Source of the DNA: Candidatus Hydrogenedentota bacterium
Lineage (GTDB): Bacteria; Hydrogenedentota; Hydrogenedentia; Hydrogenedentales; GCA-2746185
Length of the DNA: 64,000 nucleotides
Reading direction: 5' to 3'
NCBI GenBank assembly: GCA_046583315.1
Contig: JAYGCN010000011.1
Location: forward strand, 1-64,000
The translations under genes and the position numbers were made by a program. Shown in pieces: positions 3,346 to 16,154 of the stretch; positions within the stretch are counted from its first letter, which is position 1, and every line of letters begins with the position of its first letter. The notes beneath the pieces are model-generated. The model worked only from the letters and a program-made list of their open reading frames with translations, ran no database searches and had not been told where the DNA came from.

Positions 3346-3374
3346 CGTTAGGCTGAGTTTTTTGACCCTACGCG
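3346..3374 (+). mobile_element. Terminus of an IS-like element (family B)
   Basis: CGTTAGGCTGAGTTTTTTGACCCTACGCG; 27/29 inverted match to 10723-10751; related to 6843-6857 and 7388-7414. Confidence 0.6.
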
Positions 3375-3661
3375 CATATTCTGAAAGGCTCAACGGCAGT
3401 ATTCGTCGAGAGTGTCTGGACAGGGTCGTTATTCTCAATGAAGGACATCTACACCGTGTCCAGAAATCCTACTGCGAGTACAACAATCGCTACAGCGTCC
3501 ATCAGTCCTTGGAGATGGATGCGCCAGCCGACCGAAAGATTCACAACACAGAAGATGGAAATGTTGTCGCCGTTCCTCATGTCGGCGGACTACATCATCA
3601 CTACGAACGAAGAGCTGCGTGATGCTTGAAAACAAACGCGGATCAGTTTTCGGGACGGACA
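3375..3661 (+). pseudogene. 3' remnant of an rve/integrase-core transposase (IS481/IS3-like, family A) with right terminus
   Basis: AYSERLNGSIRRECLDRVVILNE..HQSL..GGLHHHYERRAA*, then GTTTTCGGGACGGACA ending at 3661. Confidence 0.8.
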
Positions 3662-3682
3662 GGCTCCGTGGTGAGATTGGTC

Positions 3683-4324: not shown

Positions 4325-6574
4325 ATGCCTGGCATCGCACCGTTTGACCCTACCGACGTTGAAGCAGCCTTATCTACGCCACGCGCAGATAAGGCTGGAA
4401 TCGAAATCAAAAAGACGCTATGCGCGAGTTGCGACATCGCCTGCAGTGTCGTTTCCGAAGTCAAGGACGGGCGCGTGGTACGGGTCCGCTCATCGGATAA
4501 TCCCATATTCAAAGACAACATTTGCATGAAGGGCATCGTCGCTCCCAAGGGTTTTGCGCACCCCGACCGCATTCTTCATCCCCTCAAGCGAGTGGGCGAG
4601 CGCGGCTCGGGAAAGTGGGAACGGGTCAGTTGGGATGAGGCGATGACCGATATCGGGAAAAGGTTGAAGGGGGTCATCGCCGAGCACGGACCCGAAGCGT
4701 GGGCCGTCTCCACGAGTCAGTGGAACACAGCCACGGATCACGGTCTTGGCCGACGAATCATGAATCATGTGGGGTCTCCCAATTGGATCAGCGGCGTAGC
4801 GCTCTGCGCGGGTAATACCGCAGCCATCAATCGGCTGACCTATGGATGGTTTCCAATGGCAGACTTTGGCAATACCAACTGCATCGTGCTTATGGGACAC
4901 AATCCGAAGCGTCATAGCTGGGTGCCGATCTACAATCAGATTCGCAGGGCACAGGCTCGTGGTGCCAAGCTGATCGTGACCGATCCCCGCCGAAGCGAGA
5001 ACGCGGAGCTTGCAGATATTTGGCTTCCCCTCAAAGTGGGTAGTGACGCAGCGATGATGTTCGGCTGGCTCAAGGTGATTCTTGACGAAGAACTGTACGA
5101 CAAAAAATTCGTGGACCAGTGGACGGTTGGCTTTGATGAATTGCGCACGAGGGTCGATGAGTTTCCAATCGACCGCGTCGCGAAACTGACGGGCTGCGAG
5201 CCGGAACTGATCAAAGAGGCGGCGCGCATGTACGCGACGAGTGGGCCCTCGATCATTCCTTGGACGCCCATCACGGACATGCAACGCAACAGCACATCCG
5301 CCATTCGCCTCCAGGGTATTCTGCGTTCCGTCTGCGGTTACGTAGACGTTCCCGGCGGAGAAACTCTGCAAGGATTCAATCCGGATATCATCTCCGAATC
5401 TGAAATCGAGATGCACGAAATATTGTCCGAAGAACAAAAAGCCAAGCAGCTGGGATCGGACGCCCATCCGGCCTTCACCTATCGCGGTCAAGCACCCTTT
5501 CGCAAACTCATGAAACGCGTGTGGGGGATCGAGTACCCGAATCAGGTGATGGGTTGTTACATGGCCACGCCTTCGGCGACATTTCGCGCGATGGCAGGCG
5601 AAGGCGCGTATCCGGTCAAGGCCTTTTTCGTACTGGGCAATAATGCCGTGATGAGTTACGCCAACATGCCGCTCATCATCAAGGCGATGATGAACCAGGA
5701 TCTCGTTGTGGTCAACGAACAATTCATGACCCCCACCGCTCAATTGGCAGACTACATTCTACCGGGCGACAGTTGGCTGGAGCGGCCGTGGTTGATGGAC
5801 GGATTCGGATGGATGTCCACCTATCGGCCCTCGCAACAAGCGATGGAGCCGCCGGGAGAAGCGAGAAGTACGTTTGAATTCTGGAAACGTATCGCCGAGT
5901 CGATTGACCGCCCCGAGGTGGTCCCATGGGCGACCTTGGAAGAGTTCTACGACTACCGGCTTGAGGGTACGGGCATGAAGTTTAAGGAATTTTCCGAAAC
6001 TCAGGAAGTCTATTTCGCCAAACCCGAGTTCAAGAAGTACGAGAAAGTCGGTTTTGCAACGCCAAGCGGAAAAGTGGAACTAAGCTCTTCGATACTCAAG
6101 GATCTTGGTTTCGATCCGCTCCCTTATTTCAGGGAAGACCCACCTGTGAATCCGGAATACCCACTCATGATGTTTACCGGCGTGCGAGAGGACGAGTATT
6201 TTCAGACGGGGCATCGACACATCCCCGAGATGCGGAAAAGAAAACCCGAACCCACGTTATTTGTCAGCCCGGCGACGGCGATCGAGCAAGACATCGAAGC
6301 CGAACAGTGGGTGGAAGTCGAAAACCCGACAGGCAGAATCAAGATTCAGGTCGCCGTAAAAGACGCGATGCCCGACGGGCTCGTTCGAATTCCTCACGGC
6401 TGGTGGAAACCCGAAACGAAACAGGGCATCGGATTTCTCTCCGGCGCGATGGATCATGCGGACGCACAACTATGCCCCGACGACGAAGACTATCTGGATC
6501 GGGAACAGGGCATACCGCATCTAAAAGGGATCCCCTGCCGCATCAACAAACTCGCTACTGTGGGAGCGTCTTGA
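4325..6574 (+). CDS. Acetylene-hydratase-family W/Mo-bisPGD enzyme with a [4Fe-4S] cluster
   Basis: CASCDIAC..ICMKG Fe-S motif; GSPNWISGVALCAGNT; IPWTPITDMQRNSTSAIR; QFMTPTAQLADYILPGDSWLERP; TPSGKVEL; IPHGWW; no Tat signal. Confidence 0.85.
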   Translation: MPGIAPFDPTDVEAALSTPRADKAGIEIKKTLCASCDIACSVVSEVKDGRVVRVRSSDNPIFKDNICMKGIVAPKGFAHPDRILHPLKRVGERGSGKWERVSWDEAMTDIGKRLKGVIAEHGPEAWAVSTSQWNTATDHGLGRRIMNHVGSPNWISGVALCAGNTAAINRLTYGWFPMADFGNTNCIVLMGHNPKRHSWVPIYNQIRRAQARGAKLIVTDPRRSENAELADIWLPLKVGSDAAMMFGWLKVILDEELYDKKFVDQWTVGFDELRTRVDEFPIDRVAKLTGCEPELIKEAARMYATSGPSIIPWTPITDMQRNSTSAIRLQGILRSVCGYVDVPGGETLQGFNPDIISESEIEMHEILSEEQKAKQLGSDAHPAFTYRGQAPFRKLMKRVWGIEYPNQVMGCYMATPSATFRAMAGEGAYPVKAFFVLGNNAVMSYANMPLIIKAMMNQDLVVVNEQFMTPTAQLADYILPGDSWLERPWLMDGFGWMSTYRPSQQAMEPPGEARSTFEFWKRIAESIDRPEVVPWATLEEFYDYRLEGTGMKFKEFSETQEVYFAKPEFKKYEKVGFATPSGKVELSSSILKDLGFDPLPYFREDPPVNPEYPLMMFTGVREDEYFQTGHRHIPEMRKRKPEPTLFVSPATAIEQDIEAEQWVEVENPTGRIKIQVAVKDAMPDGLVRIPHGWWKPETKQGIGFLSGAMDHADAQLCPDDEDYLDREQGIPHLKGIPCRINKLATVGAS

Positions 6575-6842: not shown

Positions 6843-7414
6843 CGTAGGGTCAAAAATGATGGGTGCAAATACATAGACGTGATGAACCGAGTACAAAATT
6901 GAGGGTACGATTTACAGTAAACCAGTTCGAAGAGCGAGAATCGGAGTGAGGATGCAGCTATCCAGTTCGTCGATGCGGTGTACTTTGATGATGCGATGAT
7001 CTGCGCCGCACTGTCCATCCCGAAAACTCGTACTGGTTGAAACGTAACGACTTAGGGTGGGGTCTTGCGGGAACCAAATTTCCGCGACAGACCCTCATTT
7101 GCTACTCTCTCCGCTCCTTTTTGCTAGCCGTTTCGACCTAACCGAGCATCCTGCCGCTGCATGGTCATCATTACAGGTTATCGAAGCCTTTCCGTGGGAA
7201 ACACTGCCGAAGTATCTACTTCGAGAAAGGGACGCGATAGCGGGCAGGGATACGCAGAACACAGAAGAAGGTGATGTTATCGCAATTACTTATGTTGGCG
7301 GACTACATCATCACTATGATCGAAGGGCAGCCGGATGCCAGAAAACAAACGCGGATCAGGTTTCGGGATGCACAGTGTACAATAGAAGTTGGGCTGAGAT
7401 TTTTTTGACCATAC
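6843..7414 (+). mobile_element. Degenerate non-autonomous element (family B) containing a nested family A mini-element
   Basis: Left end CGTAGGGTCAAAAAT (6843-6857); right end GTTGGGCTGAGATTTTTTTGACCATAC (7388-7414). Confidence 0.5.
7012..7374 (+). mobile_element. Internally deleted rve-transposase element (MITE-like, family A), 363 bp
   Basis: TIRs TGTCCATCCCGAAAAC and GGTTTCGGGATGCACA; residual peptides TEHPAAAWSSLQVIEAFPW..YLLRERDAI and GGLHHHYDRRAA; right end similar to 3628-3661. Confidence 0.75.
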
Positions 7415-7523
7415 TAATGAGAGGATTGGCACAGATGGTGGTATTTGAACAAGCTTGCAGTTTTGAAGCAATCGATCGAGTACCCGGTCTCAACGATGGC
7501 GTATTCTTGCCCATGGTTGAATC

Positions 7524-8435
7524 ATGAATGAGAATATCATCGAAACCAATGGGCTGACGGTATACTACGGTCATCACCCGGGCATCATTGATGTCGATCT
7601 GCAGGTGCAAACGGGGGAAGTATTTGGTTTCCTGGGGCCAAATGGGGCTGGCAAGACGACAGCTCAGAGAGTGCTTCTGGATGTAATTCGGCCTACCTCC
7701 GGCAGCGCCACCATTTTTGGTTTGGATTGTCAACGACAGGGGATTAGCATTCGGGAGCGAACCGGGTACCTGCCGGGTGAACTTAGCCTCTATCCTGGAA
7801 TGAAAGCCCATGCGTTTCTGTGCCTGTTGGCATCGTTACGCGCGAATGTGGTGGACGACGCGTTTCGTCTGCAGCTCTACGAGCGTCTGAATCTCGATCC
7901 TACTCGCAAAATGAAAACGTATTCGCGCGGCAACAAGCAAAAGGTTGGTATCATCGCCGCGTTTATGGGCAAGCCTGACTTGTTGGTGTTGGATGAACCA
8001 ACATCGGGCTTAGATCCACTTATGCAGCAAGTGGTGCTGGAATTGGTACAAGAAGCGAAAGATGAAGGCCGTACCGTTTTCTTTTCATCCCACAACTTAC
8101 CCGAAGTGCAGGCCGTGTGCGACCGAGTCGGTATAATTCGTGAAGGGCGGCTGATTAAGACAGAACAAGTGGAGACGTTGACCAAACAACAGTTCAAGCG
8201 ACTGAAAATCCGCTTTCGAGAATTGCCTCCGACAGATATTTTCAGCACCAATGGAGTGACCGAAACGGGGCGTGACGGAAAGGTCGTTACGCTGGAAATC
8301 GGAGACGGTTTGGATAAGGTTATGGAGTTGGCAGCGCGCTACGGCATCGAAGATATCGAAACGCTGCCTGTCTCACTGGAAGAAATATTTCTGGCCTTCT
8401 ATGAGGGCCGGCATGAAGGAGTCAACCATGCTTAA
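7524..8435 (+). CDS. ABC-2 type transporter ATP-binding protein
   Basis: GPNGAGKT Walker A, YSRGNKQK signature, LVLDEPT, SSH. Confidence 0.93.
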   Translation: MNENIIETNGLTVYYGHHPGIIDVDLQVQTGEVFGFLGPNGAGKTTAQRVLLDVIRPTSGSATIFGLDCQRQGISIRERTGYLPGELSLYPGMKAHAFLCLLASLRANVVDDAFRLQLYERLNLDPTRKMKTYSRGNKQKVGIIAAFMGKPDLLVLDEPTSGLDPLMQQVVLELVQEAKDEGRTVFFSSHNLPEVQAVCDRVGIIREGRLIKTEQVETLTKQQFKRLKIRFRELPPTDIFSTNGVTETGRDGKVVTLEIGDGLDKVMELAARYGIEDIETLPVSLEEIFLAFYEGRHEGVNHA

Positions 8436-9309
8436 TCTGCTCAGACACGAACTGTTCTCCCGGTGGGGTGCAGTCCTTGGCTGGGGCAGCGGCCTGTCCT
8501 TATTCGGCGTGCTGTATATCGCGATTTATCCTCAAATTGCCGATAAAATAGGGGTGTTGGCTGACATCTCTTTCTATCAGACGATGGGGGTGGACATGGG
8601 TTCATTCGAAGGGATCATCGCCTCATCCGTAATCCTTAACTTCGTCGTCATGTTGGGGGTCTTCGTCATCATCAGTAGCTCGGACACTCTCTCCGGCGAA
8701 GAAGACAGGGGAACACTGGAACTTGTTGTAACGATGCCCTTGAGGCGTTGGCATATCGTAACTACAAAGTCCATCGCTTTGGCAGTTGTTATTTTGGAAA
8801 TTTTGGTGTTGGCCGGAATTTGCAGCGTGATTGCCCTCATCTGGATGAAAAACTCTATAGCCGTGGACGTTACGTCTGCACAGCTCTTTATCGCCGTCCT
8901 CAGTTGCTTTCCGATAACGATGGCTATCCTAATGATTGGACTATTTTTTAGTGCCTCCATGCCGAATCGACGGATCGCATCCATGGCGACCACAGTTGTT
9001 TTTGTTGCCAGCTATCTCGGGGAAATGCTGGCGCGAAGCGTCGATTCGTTAGAAGTGATTAGACCCATTTTTCTGTTCCATTATTTTGATTCAAGTGCCA
9101 ATCTGTTTCTCAGAGGTGTTCAATTCAACGATGTGGCTATATTGGCTGGAATTGCATTGGTTTTTTTCGTCCTGACCCTCATTAGTTTTCAGCGCAGAGA
9201 CATTACGGTCGCCCAATGGCCCTGGCAGCGAGCAGTAGCGCGCCACGCCCGGGGACAGGTAATCACCGACGACGAGAGTGATAAATCGAATCATTCCGAC
9301 GCACATTGA
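8428..9309 (+). CDS. ABC-2 type transporter permease
   Basis: About 6 TM segments; GEEDRGTLELVVTMPLRR motif; start MLNLLRHE overlaps the ATPase stop. Confidence 0.88.
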   Translation: MLNLLRHELFSRWGAVLGWGSGLSLFGVLYIAIYPQIADKIGVLADISFYQTMGVDMGSFEGIIASSVILNFVVMLGVFVIISSSDTLSGEEDRGTLELVVTMPLRRWHIVTTKSIALAVVILEILVLAGICSVIALIWMKNSIAVDVTSAQLFIAVLSCFPITMAILMIGLFFSASMPNRRIASMATTVVFVASYLGEMLARSVDSLEVIRPIFLFHYFDSSANLFLRGVQFNDVAILAGIALVFFVLTLISFQRRDITVAQWPWQRAVARHARGQVITDDESDKSNHSDAH

Positions 9310-9397
9310 GATATAGCCGACGGCTCCACGGTTTTCTATACCTTCGCAATAAGATTCAAAGGCCGTATACAATGACAAATGGAATGGAGATTGAATC

Positions 9398-10567
9398 ATG
9401 CCTCGAATAGAAGAGATTATTCCGGATGTATTGGCTGCGGAAGCCGAGGCCGCCCGGGCTTGGTTCTCCCAGGAACGCGGCAGCGACTTCAAGTTGACCG
9501 GGATTGTCGATCCCGATGACATTGGTGAGCGAGGTTCAGCCGAGGCTGCTCGCGAGCTCCAACTGATTCTGTGCGGGAGTCCGGATGGGCAGGAGGTGTG
9601 TCTACGGGAACGCTTCGAGCTTAGCCCCTCGAGCGATGGTTTTGATGTCGTTCATCTTGAAGAAACACCCCCCAGCCTGGGCTCGCCGGCCCCGCTGCTC
9701 GATCCACCGAAGGGCGTTCGAAAGGGTTGGCTCGATACCGTAGCCGCCAATCATGCCTTCGTGGTTCTTGTCTTCTACCGTGGCTTTTGGTGACCTCCAT
9801 GCCGCCGCGAGCTGCGTGGCTATCAGCATGAAGGTATCGTCGATGCGATTCGTGAGGCAGGTGGCGAAATCTACGCCGTCACCAGTGAACCGCACTCACT
9901 GGCGCTCAACGCGCAGGAGCATTGGGAAACAGGCTTCGATCACGTCGGCGATCCGCACCAGGAAATCCTGGCCGAATGCAGCGACCGCGACTGGCTCTCG
10001 CTCTTTATTTGGCAACATGCCGCCGACTCACCCGCACAGAAGAGTAGATGGATCTCGCATCCCAAAGGATACTTCCAGCCGGGAGTACTCGCATTCAGCC
10101 GCGAAGGACGTGTGTTGTACCGGTGGCGAAGTCGTCCGAGCCGTCAGAACACCGGCGGCGCCACAGGCAGGCCGACCGCTACGCACGTGTGGGAGAGTGT
10201 GCGGGCCGAACTGGGGAAACCGTCCGACGCGCCTGATGCGTCATTGGACGACGCAGCAAATCTTGACGGCCGGAGCAGGCCCTGGATCCTCTTCCTCACC
10301 ATGCTACTGGGCAACGGCTGGTTCTTGAAACCCGCCTTCTTCGATCAGAGGACAGGCAACAATCCCAAAGACAACGTGAATAGACGTATACGTATCGCGC
10401 TAGTGCGTGCAGTAATCTTCGTCGCTGGATGGATCGCCGCCTTCGCGTTACTGCCTTTCTGGATACCGACAGTCTCCCTCGTCGCCTGGAGCGTTATGAT
10501 CGCACCCAAGATCCTGGCGGTGAACAAGGCCTTTCAGAACGTCGCGCCGGGCGAAGAACCTTCCTGA
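9398..10567 (+). CDS. Selenocysteine-containing peroxiredoxin-like (AhpC/TSA-fold) membrane protein, 389 aa
   Basis: VVLVFYRGFW-TGA(9791-9793)-PPC; the frame stays open to 10567, joining ORFs 9398..9793 and 10112..10567; later YFQPGVLAFSREGRVLYRW; hydrophobic C-terminus. Confidence 0.85.
9794..9820 (+). promoter_or_regulatory. Candidate bacterial SECIS hairpin
   Basis: Just 3' of the UGA: GCCG-C-CGC-GAGCT-GCG-TGGC stem-loop with a G at the start of the loop. Confidence 0.5.
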
Positions 10568-10644: not shown

Positions 10645-10749
10645 ATGATGCGCCACTCTCGAATCGCTTTGCTGACAGCACTCATCGTTTTAATCAGTAG
10701 TGGAGTCGAAGCTCAGCAAGCTCGCGTAGGGTCAAAAATATCAGCCTAA
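10645..10749 (+). pseudogene. Truncated gene for a secreted protein (signal peptide only)
   Basis: RBS GAGGAG then MMRHSRIALLTALIVLISSGVEAQQAR, cut at the family B terminus at 10723. Confidence 0.5.
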
Positions 10750-10751
10750 CG
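10723..10751 (-). mobile_element. Terminus of an IS-like element (family B), inverted
   Basis: CGCGTAGGGTCAAAAATATCAGCCTAACG is the reverse complement of 3346-3374 at 27/29 positions. Confidence 0.6.
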
Positions 10752-10912
10752 TTGAAAACGCACCGAACCCTGCACGTAAATTCACTATAGAGACGCATTC
10801 GGCTATGTTACTGACAAATCCATATTTCGGCAATTATTCGAAAATAGCCTGTCAGAATTGAAAAAAAGTCGACCGCCATTCATATAACAACCTCAAACTG
10901 ATTATTGGTACA

Positions 10913-11890
10913 ATGTGTTTCCGAATGGATTCCGTTGCGGAGGCGAAAAGTGTGAAACCAGACTCTTCAAAAAAGAGCAAAATTCCCCGACGTTCGTTCC
11001 TGGCGGCCTCGTCGATCACGGCGATAGGTTTAGCGACCGGATTCAAACCGATTACCGCAGAATCAAAATTTGCACTACGATACAATCTCGCATCATGTCT
11101 ATACGGCGAATTGTCGCTGGACGTGATTCTGCCGGAAGTGACGAAAATCGGCGCCACGGAAATTGACTTGTGGCCGCGAGTACACGGAAATCAACGAGAA
11201 CAGATTGATGAAATGGGTCACCACGTCTTTGCCGAAAAACTTCGCAAGCATGGCTCTCGCATGGGAATGATCACCCGATACGATTTGGGCCCATACGGTT
11301 TACAAGATGAAATGAAAATTGTCAAAGCGCTCGGTGGGGACTTGATGGTGACGGGTTCCGGGAATGTTGAGGGAGCCACGTTGAAAGAGCGTGTGCGGAA
11401 ATTTGTAGAGTCCATGAAGCCGCATGTTGCGGTCGCCGAAGATCTAGGCGTGACAATCGCTATCGAAAATCACAACAATCAACTCATCGAGAGCCCCGAT
11501 TCGCTGAAGTACCTCGCTGAAATGTCGAATTCCGAACGTCTAGGAATCGCGTTCGCCCCATACCATCTACCTCAGGACTCTGCGTTACTCGCGAACTTAA
11601 TCCGTGATTTAGGGCCGGGGATGAAACACTTCTACGCCTGGGAACACGGGATGGGATGTCATGTGAAAATACCAAAGGTTCAGGAAATGAAGCAATTGCC
11701 CGGATATGGGCCGCTGGACTTCCGGCCGATCGTGAAGGCACTGAAAGATACGAACTATTCCGGGCGAACTTCAATTTTTATGCATCCAGTACCACGTGGG
11801 ATTCCGATTTTACCCACAGCGGCAGAAGTGACCCGCGCGCTGAACCGATCACGTGAATATTTGGACAAACTTGTAAAAGGAATCGCATAA
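10913..11890 (+). CDS. Tat-exported sugar phosphate isomerase/epimerase (xylose-isomerase-like TIM barrel)
   Basis: RRSFLAASS signal; IAIENH; PGYGPLDFRPIVKALKDTNYSG. Confidence 0.85.
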   Translation: MCFRMDSVAEAKSVKPDSSKKSKIPRRSFLAASSITAIGLATGFKPITAESKFALRYNLASCLYGELSLDVILPEVTKIGATEIDLWPRVHGNQREQIDEMGHHVFAEKLRKHGSRMGMITRYDLGPYGLQDEMKIVKALGGDLMVTGSGNVEGATLKERVRKFVESMKPHVAVAEDLGVTIAIENHNNQLIESPDSLKYLAEMSNSERLGIAFAPYHLPQDSALLANLIRDLGPGMKHFYAWEHGMGCHVKIPKVQEMKQLPGYGPLDFRPIVKALKDTNYSGRTSIFMHPVPRGIPILPTAAEVTRALNRSREYLDKLVKGIA

Positions 11891-11892
11891 TC

Positions 11893-12450
11893 ATGGAAAA
11901 GGTGCTGATAATCATCGGGGACGCGTCGGAAACACTGGACACAATGTATCCGTATTACAGATTGCAGGAGGCAGGTTTCCAGCCGGTCGTGGCGGCGCCA
12001 GAGAAACGTCTATATCAAATGGTCATGCACGAGGTGAAGCCCGGATGGACGATTACCAAAGAATGGGAAGGTTACACGCTTGAAGCCGACATCGCTTTTG
12101 AGGATGTCGCTCCGGAAGAATATGCAGGAATTATGTATTCCGGTGGGCGTGCGCCGGAGTATATTCGAGACCATCCAGATCTGATAGCAATGACGAAGCA
12201 TTTTTTCGAAACCAACAAGCCGATCGCGAGCGTCTGTCATGGCGTTGAGATTCCTGCGCGGGCAGATTGCGTGCGTGGTCGGCGAATGGCGACTGTCGCG
12301 AAATGTCAATTCGACCTCGAGGTCTGCGGTGGGATTTACGTAAATGAGCCCTGTGTGATCGATGAGAATCTAGTGAGTGGAAGAACCTTCCACGATAACG
12401 GACATTACGTCGGGCCATGGATTAATCTGCTCGAAAAAGCGCGGAATTAG
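11893..12450 (+). CDS. DJ-1/PfpI family protein
   Basis: GGRAPEYIR, ASVCHG nucleophile elbow, DENLVSGR. Confidence 0.92.
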   Translation: MEKVLIIIGDASETLDTMYPYYRLQEAGFQPVVAAPEKRLYQMVMHEVKPGWTITKEWEGYTLEADIAFEDVAPEEYAGIMYSGGRAPEYIRDHPDLIAMTKHFFETNKPIASVCHGVEIPARADCVRGRRMATVAKCQFDLEVCGGIYVNEPCVIDENLVSGRTFHDNGHYVGPWINLLEKARN

Positions 12451-12459
12451 CGCTGCACT

Positions 12460-14694
12460 ATGATAGGTTTCCGCCAACTTCTGATTGCTAGCATTGCGAC
12501 TGTCAGTACGCTAACCACTCACGCGCAAAACCCGCCTATCATCCCTGGTGCCGAACGCTTGGCCGAGAAAGCTGATGGCAAGCCCAGTGTCGCAGCAGGT
12601 CGAGTTCTGTATCGAGAACTAGGGTGCATGAACTGCCATGACCAGGTAAGCGGACGACATTACACCAAGAATGGCCCAGACCTCACGACCGTAACCGAGC
12701 GAATCTCGCCGGGCTACCTGCGCGATTGGTTATCAGACCCGCACCAGACTAAACCCGGCACGACGATGCCAGATCTCTTTGCAGCATTAAGTAAAGCAGA
12801 CCGCGACGAAACCGTGGAACAAATACTCCATTACTTCATGTCTCGAGGCGAGACATTTCGGCCGGACGGCAATGAAAATTTCGAACGCGAAGCCCGAATG
12901 CGCGGCGAAAAATTATTTCATTCCGTCGGTTGCGTGGCGTGCCATGCGCCTCGCCGTGAACCCACCGTGCGGGTCGGGAGCGACGATGATTTCAGTGATC
13001 GGGCAGTAACGTATCCCGATGTAAAATTGCCGAGTGTGCCGCTTCCCGACCAGCGTAGGAAAACAAATTATACTTCGCTATCAGCATTTCTGCTCGACCC
13101 GCATAACATTCGACCTTCCGGCAGAATGCCGAATATGAAATTGAGTCCTGGTGAAGCGAAGGATATTGCGGCATATCTTCTGACGGATTCATCGGCACCC
13201 CTCGTAGAAAAGTTGCCTTTCCAGATAGATGCAGTAAAAGCAAGAACAGGAGAGAGGCTATTCGACCTAATTGGATGCGCACGATGCCATACCATTCAGA
13301 GCGATGAAGCCAAAGTCTACTCCTATACGTTGTATCCAAAAAACGACCTGAGTGCCGGATGCTTATCCATCGGGCCCATACCAAGAACAGCATGGTACAA
13401 CCTATCAGAACGCCAACGAGAATCAATTAGAATGTTTCTAACAGAACCCGGCGCGCGTGACGAAAAAGACGAGATCGAATCCCGCCTCGCTTCGCTCAAT
13501 TGCTACGCGTGTCACGAACGCGATGGCGTCGGCGGAATCGAGTCTGGACGCAATCCATATTTCTCCGCTACTATCGAAGCCGATCTCGGGGACGAAGGAC
13601 GAATCCCTCCCACATTGACCGGCATTGGCGCGAAATTGACCGAAAACGGATTGTCGAGTGTGCTGCTGAGTGACGGAACCGTGCGACCATACATGGCGAC
13701 GCGGATGCCGCAATTTGGCGAGGAGAATGTCGCGCATTTAGTGGATGCGTTTTCGAAAGCGGACAAAAATCCGGATGCGCTACCAATCGATGTATCGGGA
13801 TTGGAACATCATCATCGGAATATGTATGGGCGACAGTTGATGGGAACAGAGGGTTTTGGGTGTGTAAGCTGTCACAATTTGTATGGTGCAAAGTCGCTGG
13901 GAATTCCGGCGATCGACCTAGCGACCGTGCCGGAACGAATTCAACCGTCGTGGTTTAAGGAGTATTTACTGGATCCTGCGGAGTTGCGCCCTGGTACGCG
14001 AATGCCGACGTTCTTTGAGGACGGTAAGAGTACGTTTAGAAAGGTTTTCGGAGGCGACGCGAATAAGCAGATTGAAGCGCTCTGGATTTACCTCCGCGAA
14101 ATCGACCAAACTCGGTTACCGATCGGGATGGAAGACAACGGAAACTACGAACTCGTACCTACGGATAAGCCTATCATCCTTCGCACGTTCATGAAAGACG
14201 TGGGTACACATGCAATCGCGGTGGGATATCCAGAGGGTGTGCATATAGCGTTTGATGCATTGAATTGTCGACTGGCGATGGCCTGGCGCGGGCGATTTAT
14301 CGATGCAGAGTCGACCTGGTCGGATCGCTTCTCGCCAGAAGCTGAACCGTTGAGTGAGGAGCGTTTTCTTGTGTCGAAGGGTATGCCCATCGGAGTGACT
14401 CCAAAAGCATCCGGCGTATTGGGTAGGGAGGCGGGATATCATTTTCTTGGATATCGATTGAACGATGAAGGGTTGCCTACATTCGTATACTCCATCGCGT
14501 TAGAAGATGAATTGATATCTGTTGAGGAGCTGGTGCGAGTTCGGAAAAATGGTCAGATTGTGCGGCGTTTTACGATAGCGGGTGATCGCAAAACAGTACT
14601 ATACGTGCGGTCCGGTGCAGCAAATGCTATTCCATTTGTGGTGCAGCCTTCGAGTCGAAGTATGACAGTAGAACTGAATTGGAATTTGGATTGA
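12460..14694 (+). CDS. Secreted pentaheme cytochrome c
   Basis: Signal peptide; CMNCH, CVACH, CARCH, CYACH, CVSCH; repeated P..MP distal-Met motifs. Confidence 0.88.
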   Translation: MIGFRQLLIASIATVSTLTTHAQNPPIIPGAERLAEKADGKPSVAAGRVLYRELGCMNCHDQVSGRHYTKNGPDLTTVTERISPGYLRDWLSDPHQTKPGTTMPDLFAALSKADRDETVEQILHYFMSRGETFRPDGNENFEREARMRGEKLFHSVGCVACHAPRREPTVRVGSDDDFSDRAVTYPDVKLPSVPLPDQRRKTNYTSLSAFLLDPHNIRPSGRMPNMKLSPGEAKDIAAYLLTDSSAPLVEKLPFQIDAVKARTGERLFDLIGCARCHTIQSDEAKVYSYTLYPKNDLSAGCLSIGPIPRTAWYNLSERQRESIRMFLTEPGARDEKDEIESRLASLNCYACHERDGVGGIESGRNPYFSATIEADLGDEGRIPPTLTGIGAKLTENGLSSVLLSDGTVRPYMATRMPQFGEENVAHLVDAFSKADKNPDALPIDVSGLEHHHRNMYGRQLMGTEGFGCVSCHNLYGAKSLGIPAIDLATVPERIQPSWFKEYLLDPAELRPGTRMPTFFEDGKSTFRKVFGGDANKQIEALWIYLREIDQTRLPIGMEDNGNYELVPTDKPIILRTFMKDVGTHAIAVGYPEGVHIAFDALNCRLAMAWRGRFIDAESTWSDRFSPEAEPLSEERFLVSKGMPIGVTPKASGVLGREAGYHFLGYRLNDEGLPTFVYSIALEDELISVEELVRVRKNGQIVRRFTIAGDRKTVLYVRSGAANAIPFVVQPSSRSMTVELNWNLD

Positions 14695-16154
14695 TGAAAA
14701 TATTATTAAGCATATTAATGTACACGCTGGTAGTGCCGGCATATGGTGACGAAGAAAACGACTACTACCGTATCGTGACGCTGCCTACTCCGAAGGGTGT
14801 GCCCTTCGAAGTAGGCGGACTGGACGTGTTGCCGGATGGGCGTGTGGCAGTAGCGATTCGGAAGGGGGAGGTTTGGTTGGTAGATGGGGTGTATGACGAA
14901 CCGCCTATTGATATTTCATTCAAACAGATTGCGAGTGCATTGCATGAACCGCTGGGAGTTCTAGTGGACGGTGCGGATCTGCTGACGGTGCAGCGCAGTG
15001 AATTGACGCGTCTCAGGGATACCAACGGTGATGACATTATTGATGAATATTTGACCGTTGCGAACAATTGGGGCATAACGGGGAATTATCATGAGTACGC
15101 ATTCGGACCGAAACGAGATGGGGCCGGGCGACTGTGGTTGACGTTGAATCAAACAATCGGAGTGAAACTTACGGCAACGGACGACTGGCGCGGGTGGGGG
15201 ATGATGCTCGACGAGGGCGGGAAGTTGATTCCAATTTGCGGAGGAATGCGATCGCCATGTGGACTCGGAGCAAATAACCTTGGGGATATGTTCTTCACTG
15301 ACCAACAGGGGAATTGGGTGCCGACGGGGTCGTTGCACCACATGCGACCAGGTGCTTTTTTCGGACATGTGGATTCGCTAAAACATGCGCGACAACCCGA
15401 ATCTCCTTTGGAACATCCGGGTCAGATTCTCTCGAAGGTCCCCCTTGCGGAAGCCTTAGAAAACATTCCCGCGTTCAAGCCGCCCGCAATCTGGTTTCCG
15501 TATCGGAAAATGGGAATGAGCGCGACAGATATCGCTAATGATGCTACCGGCGGGAAATTCGGCCCATTCGAGGGGCAGATGTTTGTCGGGGATTTTACGA
15601 TGGCCCGAATCAATCGCGTTTTTCTGGAAAAGGTCGGAGGCAAGTATCAGGGCGCATGTTTCCCATTCAGAAAAGGGTTTCAGTCAGCAGTTGTTCGAAT
15701 GGCATGGGGTGCGGACGGTTCGATGATTGTTGGAGAGACGAATCGAGGGTGGAATTCGACAGGTAGCACTTCCTACGGTCTGGAACGTTTGGTGTGGACG
15801 GGCGAAACGCCGTTTGAGATCCTAAGCATGTCTGCCGAACCAGACGGATTCACACTCCGGTTCACCAAATCGATAGATTTGAAAAGCGCCGCGGCTCCAA
15901 GCTCATACACGATGTCGAGTTATACCTACACCTACCATCAAGATTACGGAAGCCCGGAAATCGACTCGAGAGAGTTGAACATAACACAGGCAACCGTGAG
16001 TGCCGACCGCAAAAGCGTGCGACTAACAGTAGATGGCCTGCGGGAAATCTACGTTCACGAGTTGAATGCTGTGGGCGTAATGTCCGTCGATGGTGAATCA
16101 CTTTTGCACAACGACGCGTATTACACACTCAATCAAATTCCCAATGTCAATTGA
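14694..16154 (+). CDS. Secreted beta-propeller protein (glucose/sorbosone-dehydrogenase-like, PVC type)
   Basis: Signal peptide; NYHEYAFGP, GMRSPCG, TDQQGNW, YQGACFPF; TGATG start overlap. Confidence 0.75.
   Translation: MKILLSILMYTLVVPAYGDEENDYYRIVTLPTPKGVPFEVGGLDVLPDGRVAVAIRKGEVWLVDGVYDEPPIDISFKQIASALHEPLGVLVDGADLLTVQRSELTRLRDTNGDDIIDEYLTVANNWGITGNYHEYAFGPKRDGAGRLWLTLNQTIGVKLTATDDWRGWGMMLDEGGKLIPICGGMRSPCGLGANNLGDMFFTDQQGNWVPTGSLHHMRPGAFFGHVDSLKHARQPESPLEHPGQILSKVPLAEALENIPAFKPPAIWFPYRKMGMSATDIANDATGGKFGPFEGQMFVGDFTMARINRVFLEKVGGKYQGACFPFRKGFQSAVVRMAWGADGSMIVGETNRGWNSTGSTSYGLERLVWTGETPFEILSMSAEPDGFTLRFTKSIDLKSAAAPSSYTMSSYTYTYHQDYGSPEIDSRELNITQATVSADRKSVRLTVDGLREIYVHELNAVGVMSVDGESLLHNDAYYTLNQIPNVN

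Follow-up and report, generated by a model that had tools for sequence, protein, structure and literature searches.

Selenoproteins with a UxxC motif in a peroxiredoxin-type domain have been described in several settings. In the 2008 GOS survey (PMC2398784), Table 2 and Dataset S1 use the name 'Prx-like 1' for a PF00578 group with UxxC. Dataset S1 contains 20 matches to YRGFWUPPC and 7 to YRGLWUPPC, 27 in all; the 22 that were inspected (15 + 7) come after the header Prx-like 1 and before Prx-like 2, and some of the matching reads include the N-terminal Cys pair described below and others the hydrophobic tail. On the strength of these matches, the prediction that the family uses Sec was already published in 2008. 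The gene analyzed here resembles Prx-like 1 in its PF00578 domain, its UxxC motif and a SECIS element inside the open reading frame, and reads of the same family are in that dataset. Prx-like 1 is, however, a broad bin, and neither the N-terminal domain nor the membrane module of our protein is among the four fusions drawn in Figure S1 of that paper. SelL-related and eukaryotic AhpC-like UxxC selenoproteins (PMC3753652, PMC3473315, PMC7539508) share an active site of the FYRG.W-U-xxC type, but neither extra module is mentioned where these papers treat the proteins.

Family models and the literature give a similar picture. The best NCBIfam match, the SelL-related redox protein NF040769, scores 27 bits against a cut-off of 120, and no NCBIfam model exceeds its cut-off. 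The table rows consulted in PMC13188914 contain no family of three-part build, and a literature search found neither a description of the three-part architecture nor a functional test of the subfamily, though the proteins may already be listed in BSepDB. The class is thus known, and the architecture of what is very likely a selenoprotein gene is what was not found in print. The sequence-only reading had presented the gene as a hidden selenoprotein; the selenoprotein stands, but it was not hidden in the sense of unknown, Sec forms being present in Dataset S1 of PMC2398784. As the class was already known, the Sec call alone is a modest one; within the 'Prx-like 1' catch-all the gene marks out a distinct subfamily that carries two uncharacterised modules.

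The window (the whole 64,000-nt stretch of DNA that was analyzed) carries the gene at 9398..10567 on the forward strand, where it forms a single frame of 389 codons plus stop, beginning with ATG at 9398. A likely ribosome-binding site, GGAG (9386..9389, forward strand), lies 8 nt 5' of the ATG, and the start residue is common to the homologues, the Cys-containing ones aligning over their full length at 49-72% identity. The sole internal TGA is at 9791-9793 (codon 132) and the next stop is the TGA at 10565-10567, so the frame does run on past the first TGA to 10567, as had been claimed, and gives a read-through product of 389 residues. The active-site stretch then reads VVLVFYRGFW-U-PPCRRELRGY, and the other motifs quoted earlier are all present: IYAVTSEP, YFQPGVLAFSREGRVLYRW, C59/C68 and a hydrophobic C-terminus. 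Could the TGA be an assembly error? In each of two runs, both flagged as possible sources of the window DNA, contigs span the gene unbroken; they differ from it at 1 and 2 positions, all outside 9791-9793, and this explanation was rejected.

An AlphaFold model of the full protein (mean pLDDT 78.7, pTM 0.72) has three parts: an N-terminal domain, a thioredoxin/peroxiredoxin core and C-terminal helices. The core (residues ~106-277; 9713..10228, forward strand) scores 32.9 bits with PF00578 against a cut-off of 26, which bears out the UxxC redox domain proposed from the sequence. In VIA comparisons with solved structures the core gave Z 12.8-13.1 to peroxiredoxins (rmsd 2.6-3.3 over ~135 residues), with 13.1 to PrxQ/BCP-type chains, and the ranking put peroxiredoxins (Z 13) ahead of disulfide reductases (Z ~10.6). 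PrxQ, BCP and AhpE are the closest folds, with a Foldseek E of 5e-5 for the core. Sequence searches of solved structures returned nothing at E <= 1 for one alignment (A2) and weak matches for two others (A1 and A3), and in the ESM Atlas the N- and C-parts of a Cys homologue hit nothing but unnamed clusters (scores 0.75-0.83), at best a lead.

Is the core then a peroxiredoxin? Its likeness to these enzymes (BCP/PrxQ, AhpC, AhpE) lies in the fold and in Cys135 (9800..9802, forward strand), the second residue of UxxC, which aligns with the peroxidatic Cys. The PxxxTxxC/U motif, however, is missing and is replaced by RGFWUPPC, with Arg128 at the position of the Pro and Sec132 at that of the Thr. 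Missing too is the catalytic Arg: in an alignment with a single peroxiredoxin sequence, a BCP-like protein of the host genome, its position is occupied by Pro228 (10079..10081, forward strand). This residue is Pro in 97% of 88 distinct full-length proteins (drawn from 104, loci that were cut short or had no start being dropped), and Cys194 is present in 89% of the same set. The extra N- and C-terminal modules are a further difference from peroxiredoxins. Judged by the fold, Pro228 would be the cis-Pro of thioredoxins, and the definition of CDD PRX_like2 (cd02970), CxxC plus an incomplete peroxiredoxin triad, fits the core. Since the motif Pro and Thr and the catalytic Arg are replaced, the protein is no true peroxiredoxin, and the same replacements make a thiol-disulfide oxidoreductase likely; judged from these residues, disulfide rather than peroxide chemistry is the more probable. 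The earlier label 'peroxiredoxin-like' therefore suits the fold and not the catalysis.

The alternative that survives best, although we think it unlikely, is that the selenoprotein acts as a membrane lipid hydroperoxide peroxidase in which Sec replaces the missing catalytic residues of peroxiredoxins. The reactivity of Sec suffices for peroxide reduction even where the peroxiredoxin triad is lacking, as in GPx. A membrane tether would suit such an enzyme, as would the closeness of the fold to PrxQ, BCP and AhpE and the invariant Arg258 and GGA..RP motif near the end of the core. Against this, PxxxTxxC and the catalytic Arg are absent and Sec occupies the first CxxC position, not the peroxidatic one; the Sec-containing peroxiredoxins in Table 1 of PMC13188914 use TxxU.

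The C-terminal membrane module (residues 294-378; 10277..10531, forward strand) opens with a short hydrophobic helix, followed by a conserved GWF..P..F loop, a stretch rich in basic residues and, last, a hairpin predicted to consist of two helices. Family-mean hydropathy is 1.7-1.9 for segments starting at residues 336-351, and residues 306-336 contain a mean of 5.3 K/R; the hydrophobic C-terminus noted from the sequence is thus seen both in the model, as a membrane hairpin, and across the family. The segment 294-312 is weakly hydrophobic (mean ~1.0), with a predicted helix of 10 residues. At the other end of the protein, residues 1-30 are acidic throughout the family (mean 5.7 D/E vs 2.3 K/R), and this non-hydrophobic N-terminus has no signal peptide. 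From the lack of a signal peptide and the basic residues ahead of the hairpin we infer that the catalytic part faces the cytoplasm, so that the likely topology is a cytoplasm-facing enzyme on a C-terminal anchor.

The N-terminal domain had been put at ~115 residues with two Cys. The extra domain and the conservation of both Cys are confirmed, but the folded part is shorter (residues ~1-90; 9398..9667, forward strand) and is predicted to be a long helix on an antiparallel sheet. Folded alone, residues 1-90 reach an AlphaFold pLDDT of 84.8. Cystatins are the best VIA matches of this model among solved structures (Z 7.9, rmsd 2.8, 74 aligned residues) and, by title, make up most of the top 12 rows, although with Z < 8 this may be just a common arrangement; Foldseek found no match at E<=0.001. 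A cystatin-like fold is thus a borderline assignment for the model. The likeness to the cystatin superfamily (phytocystatins, cystatin E/M, MS5, SQAPI) lies in the predicted helix-on-sheet topology, over 74-81 of 95 residues; identity, by contrast, is 5-20%, and the domain is fused to a redox domain. QxVxG, the cystatin inhibitor motif, is absent from the N-terminal domain in the 32-row alignment A3. Cys59 and Cys68 (9572..9574 and 9599..9601, forward strand), at the end and the start of consecutive predicted strands, are invariant in that alignment and present in 88/88 distinct full-length proteins. When the domain was sought in longer proteins, all 9 matches belonged to the same selenoprotein family, which is weak evidence as only 8000 candidates were scored. 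One 180-aa protein (P0196) joins the N-terminal domain straight to the membrane module without the redox core; it is a single sequence on two contigs and may be a deletion or an assembly artefact.

How might the three parts work together? Our main reading, to which we give a probability of roughly 0.6 (a figure that partly overlaps with those of the rival readings), is that the gene encodes a thiol-disulfide oxidoreductase that depends on Sec, sits at the inner membrane face and uses Sec-Pro-Pro-Cys as its active site. The UGA would be decoded as Sec through the SECIS hairpin to give one tripartite protein, with a predicted attachment to the cell membrane from the inside. Sec132 would attack a substrate disulfide or oxidised thiol and Cys135 would resolve the intermediate, as in enzymes of the Trx/TlpA type. 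By analogy, and most simply in a reducing compartment, the invariant Cys59/Cys68 pair could form another redox centre and pass electrons to or from the UxxC site; this is the part of which we are least sure, and we put it forward tentatively. DsbD and the N-terminal domain of AhpF are multi-centre thiol relays. The resemblance is that a thioredoxin-fold CxxC domain is combined with a second Cys-pair domain and, in DsbD, with a membrane part; no sequence or fold match was found, however, and the analogy is functional only. In its boldest form the reading is of a marine selenoenzyme subfamily, widespread in occurrence, whose cystatin-fold domain was turned into a redox module: the cross-strand Cys pair would trade electrons with Sec-Pro-Pro-Cys on the membrane-tethered thioredoxin fold, as a self-contained relay at the inner membrane. 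We hold this to be less likely than not.

Alternatively, the Cys pair might serve just to stabilise a binding domain as a structural disulfide, perhaps at the outer membrane face. Among the cystatin-fold matches are the colicin M immunity protein and secreted proteins with disulfide bonds, and the third hydrophobic segment, 294-312, could in principle flip the topology. This reading is improbable: the acidic N-terminus without a signal peptide does not agree with it, and 294-312 is weakly hydrophobic and predicted to form a helix of only 10 residues.

The case for Sec at codon 132 starts from a survey of the codon in 134 sources (52 genome loci, the best 80 of 197 metagenome loci, the window and a paralog in the host genome). 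The genome loci came from an alignment-based scan of genome contigs; a scan of the same kind of contigs with a single sequence gave no match. The site could be aligned in 132 sources, L075 and L125 being the exceptions. With the metagenome part limited to the best 80 of 197, these 132 loci have 121 TGA, 8 TGT and 3 TGC codons at the site, and no Trp codon, other stop or other codon. Reading of TGA as Trp was rejected, TGG being found in 0/132 aligned loci. Databases hold full-length proteins (387-401 aa) that can be aligned over their entire length and have W-C-P-P-C at the site; most other database matches are ~250-aa pieces beginning just past the site or ~125-aa pieces ending in YRG.W, so that the database split of the gene falls exactly at the UGA.

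The host genome has the genes that Sec insertion calls for: profile searches found selA, selB, a selD match and tRNA-Sec, all above their cut-offs. selA was also found in 10/13 other genomes of the host family, which indicates that the machinery is native. Across genomes, selB exceeded its cut-off in 41/44 with the TGA allele and in 0/6 with the Cys allele (L075, with no site, is left out); as the genomes are related and incomplete, these counts overstate the significance and are no clean test. The three TGA-allele genomes without selB above cut-off comprise one with full selA (G007), one with a selA fragment at a contig edge (G048) and one with no match (G012). Five of the six Cys-allele genomes show no selA match either; in the sixth (G002) selA is present, along with what is probably a truncated piece of selB. 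In a quick tree of the 88 proteins, made without bootstrap and rooted only at the midpoint, the 7 Cys forms need two changes and are nested inside TGA clades in two places, which fits Sec-to-Cys reversions. The Cys allele of G002 (L033, motif CPPCRPE) has an Arg-to-Pro change that breaks the SECIS stem; together with the retained selA, this suggests a recent reversion from Sec to Cys.

The stem-loop that had been noticed after the UGA is a bacterial SECIS hairpin (9804..9820, forward strand) with a 6-bp stem (9804-9809/9815-9820) and a five-base loop (9810-9814) that begins 16 nt downstream of the UGA. Its folding energy is -19.9 kcal/mol (z -2.3; 4/200 shuffles as good), and a 6-bp stem in the same register follows only 524/160,804 TGA triplets of the genome (0.33%). 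The SECIS description in PMC13188914 gives a loop of 3-9 nt at 16-37 nt past the UGA with G within the first two loop positions, a stem of 4-16 bp and an MFE <= -7.5; the window hairpin, with its 16-nt spacing, AGCUG loop, 6-bp upper stem and energy, falls within these limits. The stem also shows compensatory changes. In 91 distinct 45-nt TGA contexts, 98.7% of 546 cells pair and 63 cells are changed on both sides, a level reached by 0/500 shuffles; controls slid along the sequence were 23-61% paired with 0-1 two-sided cells. All six stem pairs are intact in 97/102 distinct TGA contexts vs 1/8 Cys contexts, and the Leu codon of the loop is TTG or TTA in 101/102 contexts vs 235/2059 Leu codons elsewhere downstream. 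Taken together, the codon survey (121 TGA and 11 Cys among 132 loci), the covariation and the Sec genes bear out the proposal of Sec at this UGA, for which the in-frame TGA (9791..9793, forward strand) would supply the first residue of U-P-P-C. The family almost certainly uses Sec, the UGA of the 9398-10567 gene is very likely decoded as selenocysteine, and it is highly probable from the sequence that the window copy makes at least some selenoprotein.

The loop of the window copy is atypical. Among 102 contexts AGCUG is unique, 100 having AGUUG or AGUUA (AGUUR) and one AAUUA. In PMC13188914 the loop G is usually, though not necessarily, followed by G or U; the window has G-C, whereas 100/102 contexts have G-U. 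The difference lies at position 9812, where the window has C but almost every relative has T; T is also what two runs with otherwise near-identical DNA carry. The change is synonymous. Apart from the window, C is known from one 171-nt contig of depth 5.2, possibly from the same sample, so that a rare variant or an error may lie behind it. With the T allele a TTG arises, which gene callers mistake for a start codon.

The odd loop may mean that the window copy reads through less well. The family would then use Sec while this copy, its SECIS weakened, mostly stops at codon 132, and the working gene would be the paralog at contig C77:5376-6542 on the reverse strand (L021), which is 72% identical, has the same TGA and shows an AGTTG loop with compensatory stem changes. 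That paralog could itself be foreign, as the host genome is 5.4% contaminated. Inspection by eye of 11 other likely Sec genes of the host genome showed G-T or G-G in the loop region of all, and this, like the rarity of the loop, the T at 9812 in the two runs and the existence of a second copy, is what a weakened copy would predict. Its stem, 16-nt spacing and loop G are intact, however, and so is its frame: against a 93%-identical locus (L077) there are 39 synonymous and 28 non-synonymous changes, in similar proportion on both sides of the TGA. With the C allele perhaps a mere variant or error, a copy that mostly stops is a slim prospect. A real stop, whether in a pseudogene, through a sequencing error or between two separate genes, is already largely refuted: gene callers do give two pieces and a few loci (e.g. 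L073 and L076) are broken downstream, but the same TGA recurs in 119/130 other loci (metagenome part: best 80 of 197) and in the paralog, there are Cys orthologues of full length, the hairpin shows covariation, and genomes with the TGA allele tend to have selB.

The host genome appears to hold further selenoprotein genes. Ten likely UGA-Sec genes were picked by eye from 105 script candidates, at C101:3371(-), C94:800(-), C272:1845(-), C186:26138(-), C46:33040(-), C232:11382(-), C154:3793(-), C163:1591(+), C9:4131(-) and C17:2761(+). By motif they would be labelled Prx-like, TlpA-like, UGSC-like, BCP-like, SelL-related and deiodinase-like. The selD match (L023:6204-8396, contig C299) lies inside an ORF of 730 aa that begins with a part resembling FAD oxidoreductases and contains a CAGC motif; tRNA-Sec is ~4 kb away. 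This ORF resembles the Ndh-SelD fusions reported in PMC2398784.

Carriers of the gene include MAGs of Myxococcota, Gamma- and Alphaproteobacteria, Acidimicrobiia, Verrucomicrobiales, Spirochaetaceae and Saprospiraceae, and the runs that hold at least half of the gene's words are marine or seawater metagenomes. Within the host family, 0/13 other genomes match the gene. Such a patchy distribution fits horizontal spread, as had been suggested from the surroundings of the gene. The description of those surroundings as IS-scarred is borne out as regards dispersed repeats (3373-3662, 7255-7375 and 10724-10895), but not as regards IS identity, the ORF at 7057-7524 having no Pfam match; it resembles an integrase-core remnant. 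The first two repeats are related degenerate copies (83% over 121 nt) that also occur on C294 and C355; the third, of ~170 nt, recurs whole or in part on roughly a dozen further contigs, with 70-90% identity. Neighbours in the intervals 4325-6574, 7524-9309 and 10913-16154 are a molybdopterin oxidoreductase with an HxlR-like regulator, an ABC-2 exporter pair, a xylose-isomerase-like TIM barrel, a DJ-1/PfpI protein and a multi-haem cytochrome c protein. When 2441 ORFs were clustered by neighbourhood, no gene proved to be shared beyond close kin and none pointed to a substrate or reductant, and a promoter/terminator scan stayed at chance level.

The core plus membrane module seems, on sequence, to have protist relatives. 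Seven distant relatives (P0212, P0256, P0192, P0249, P0251, P0259 and P0260) share a QP..L..W...P..N.GG..RP core, and most of them also have the G.F loop and hydrophobic tail and begin past the active site. P0212, from Ploeotia vitrea, begins after the active site, and in P0256 (Paulinella) the active site is garbled; proteins such as these are possibly unrecognised eukaryotic selenoproteins. In other organisms (P0180, P0194, P0222 and P0246) the same redox core is fused to a YHS (seleno)protein, RasGAP, RGS or DEP domains.

The Sec call mends a gene that databases split into two 'hypothetical' pieces across several phyla. In its SECIS one sees, cleanly and in nature, how an RNA structure can steer the sequence of a protein: RRE-LRG, RSE-LRS and RLE-LRG covary so that the stem is preserved, and the synonymous loop polymorphism is a ready test of SelB loop specificity. 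The chemistry is easy to test because natural Cys versions can be expressed without Sec machinery. If the Cys pair of the N-terminal domain is redox active, it would represent a new use of a cystatin-like fold.
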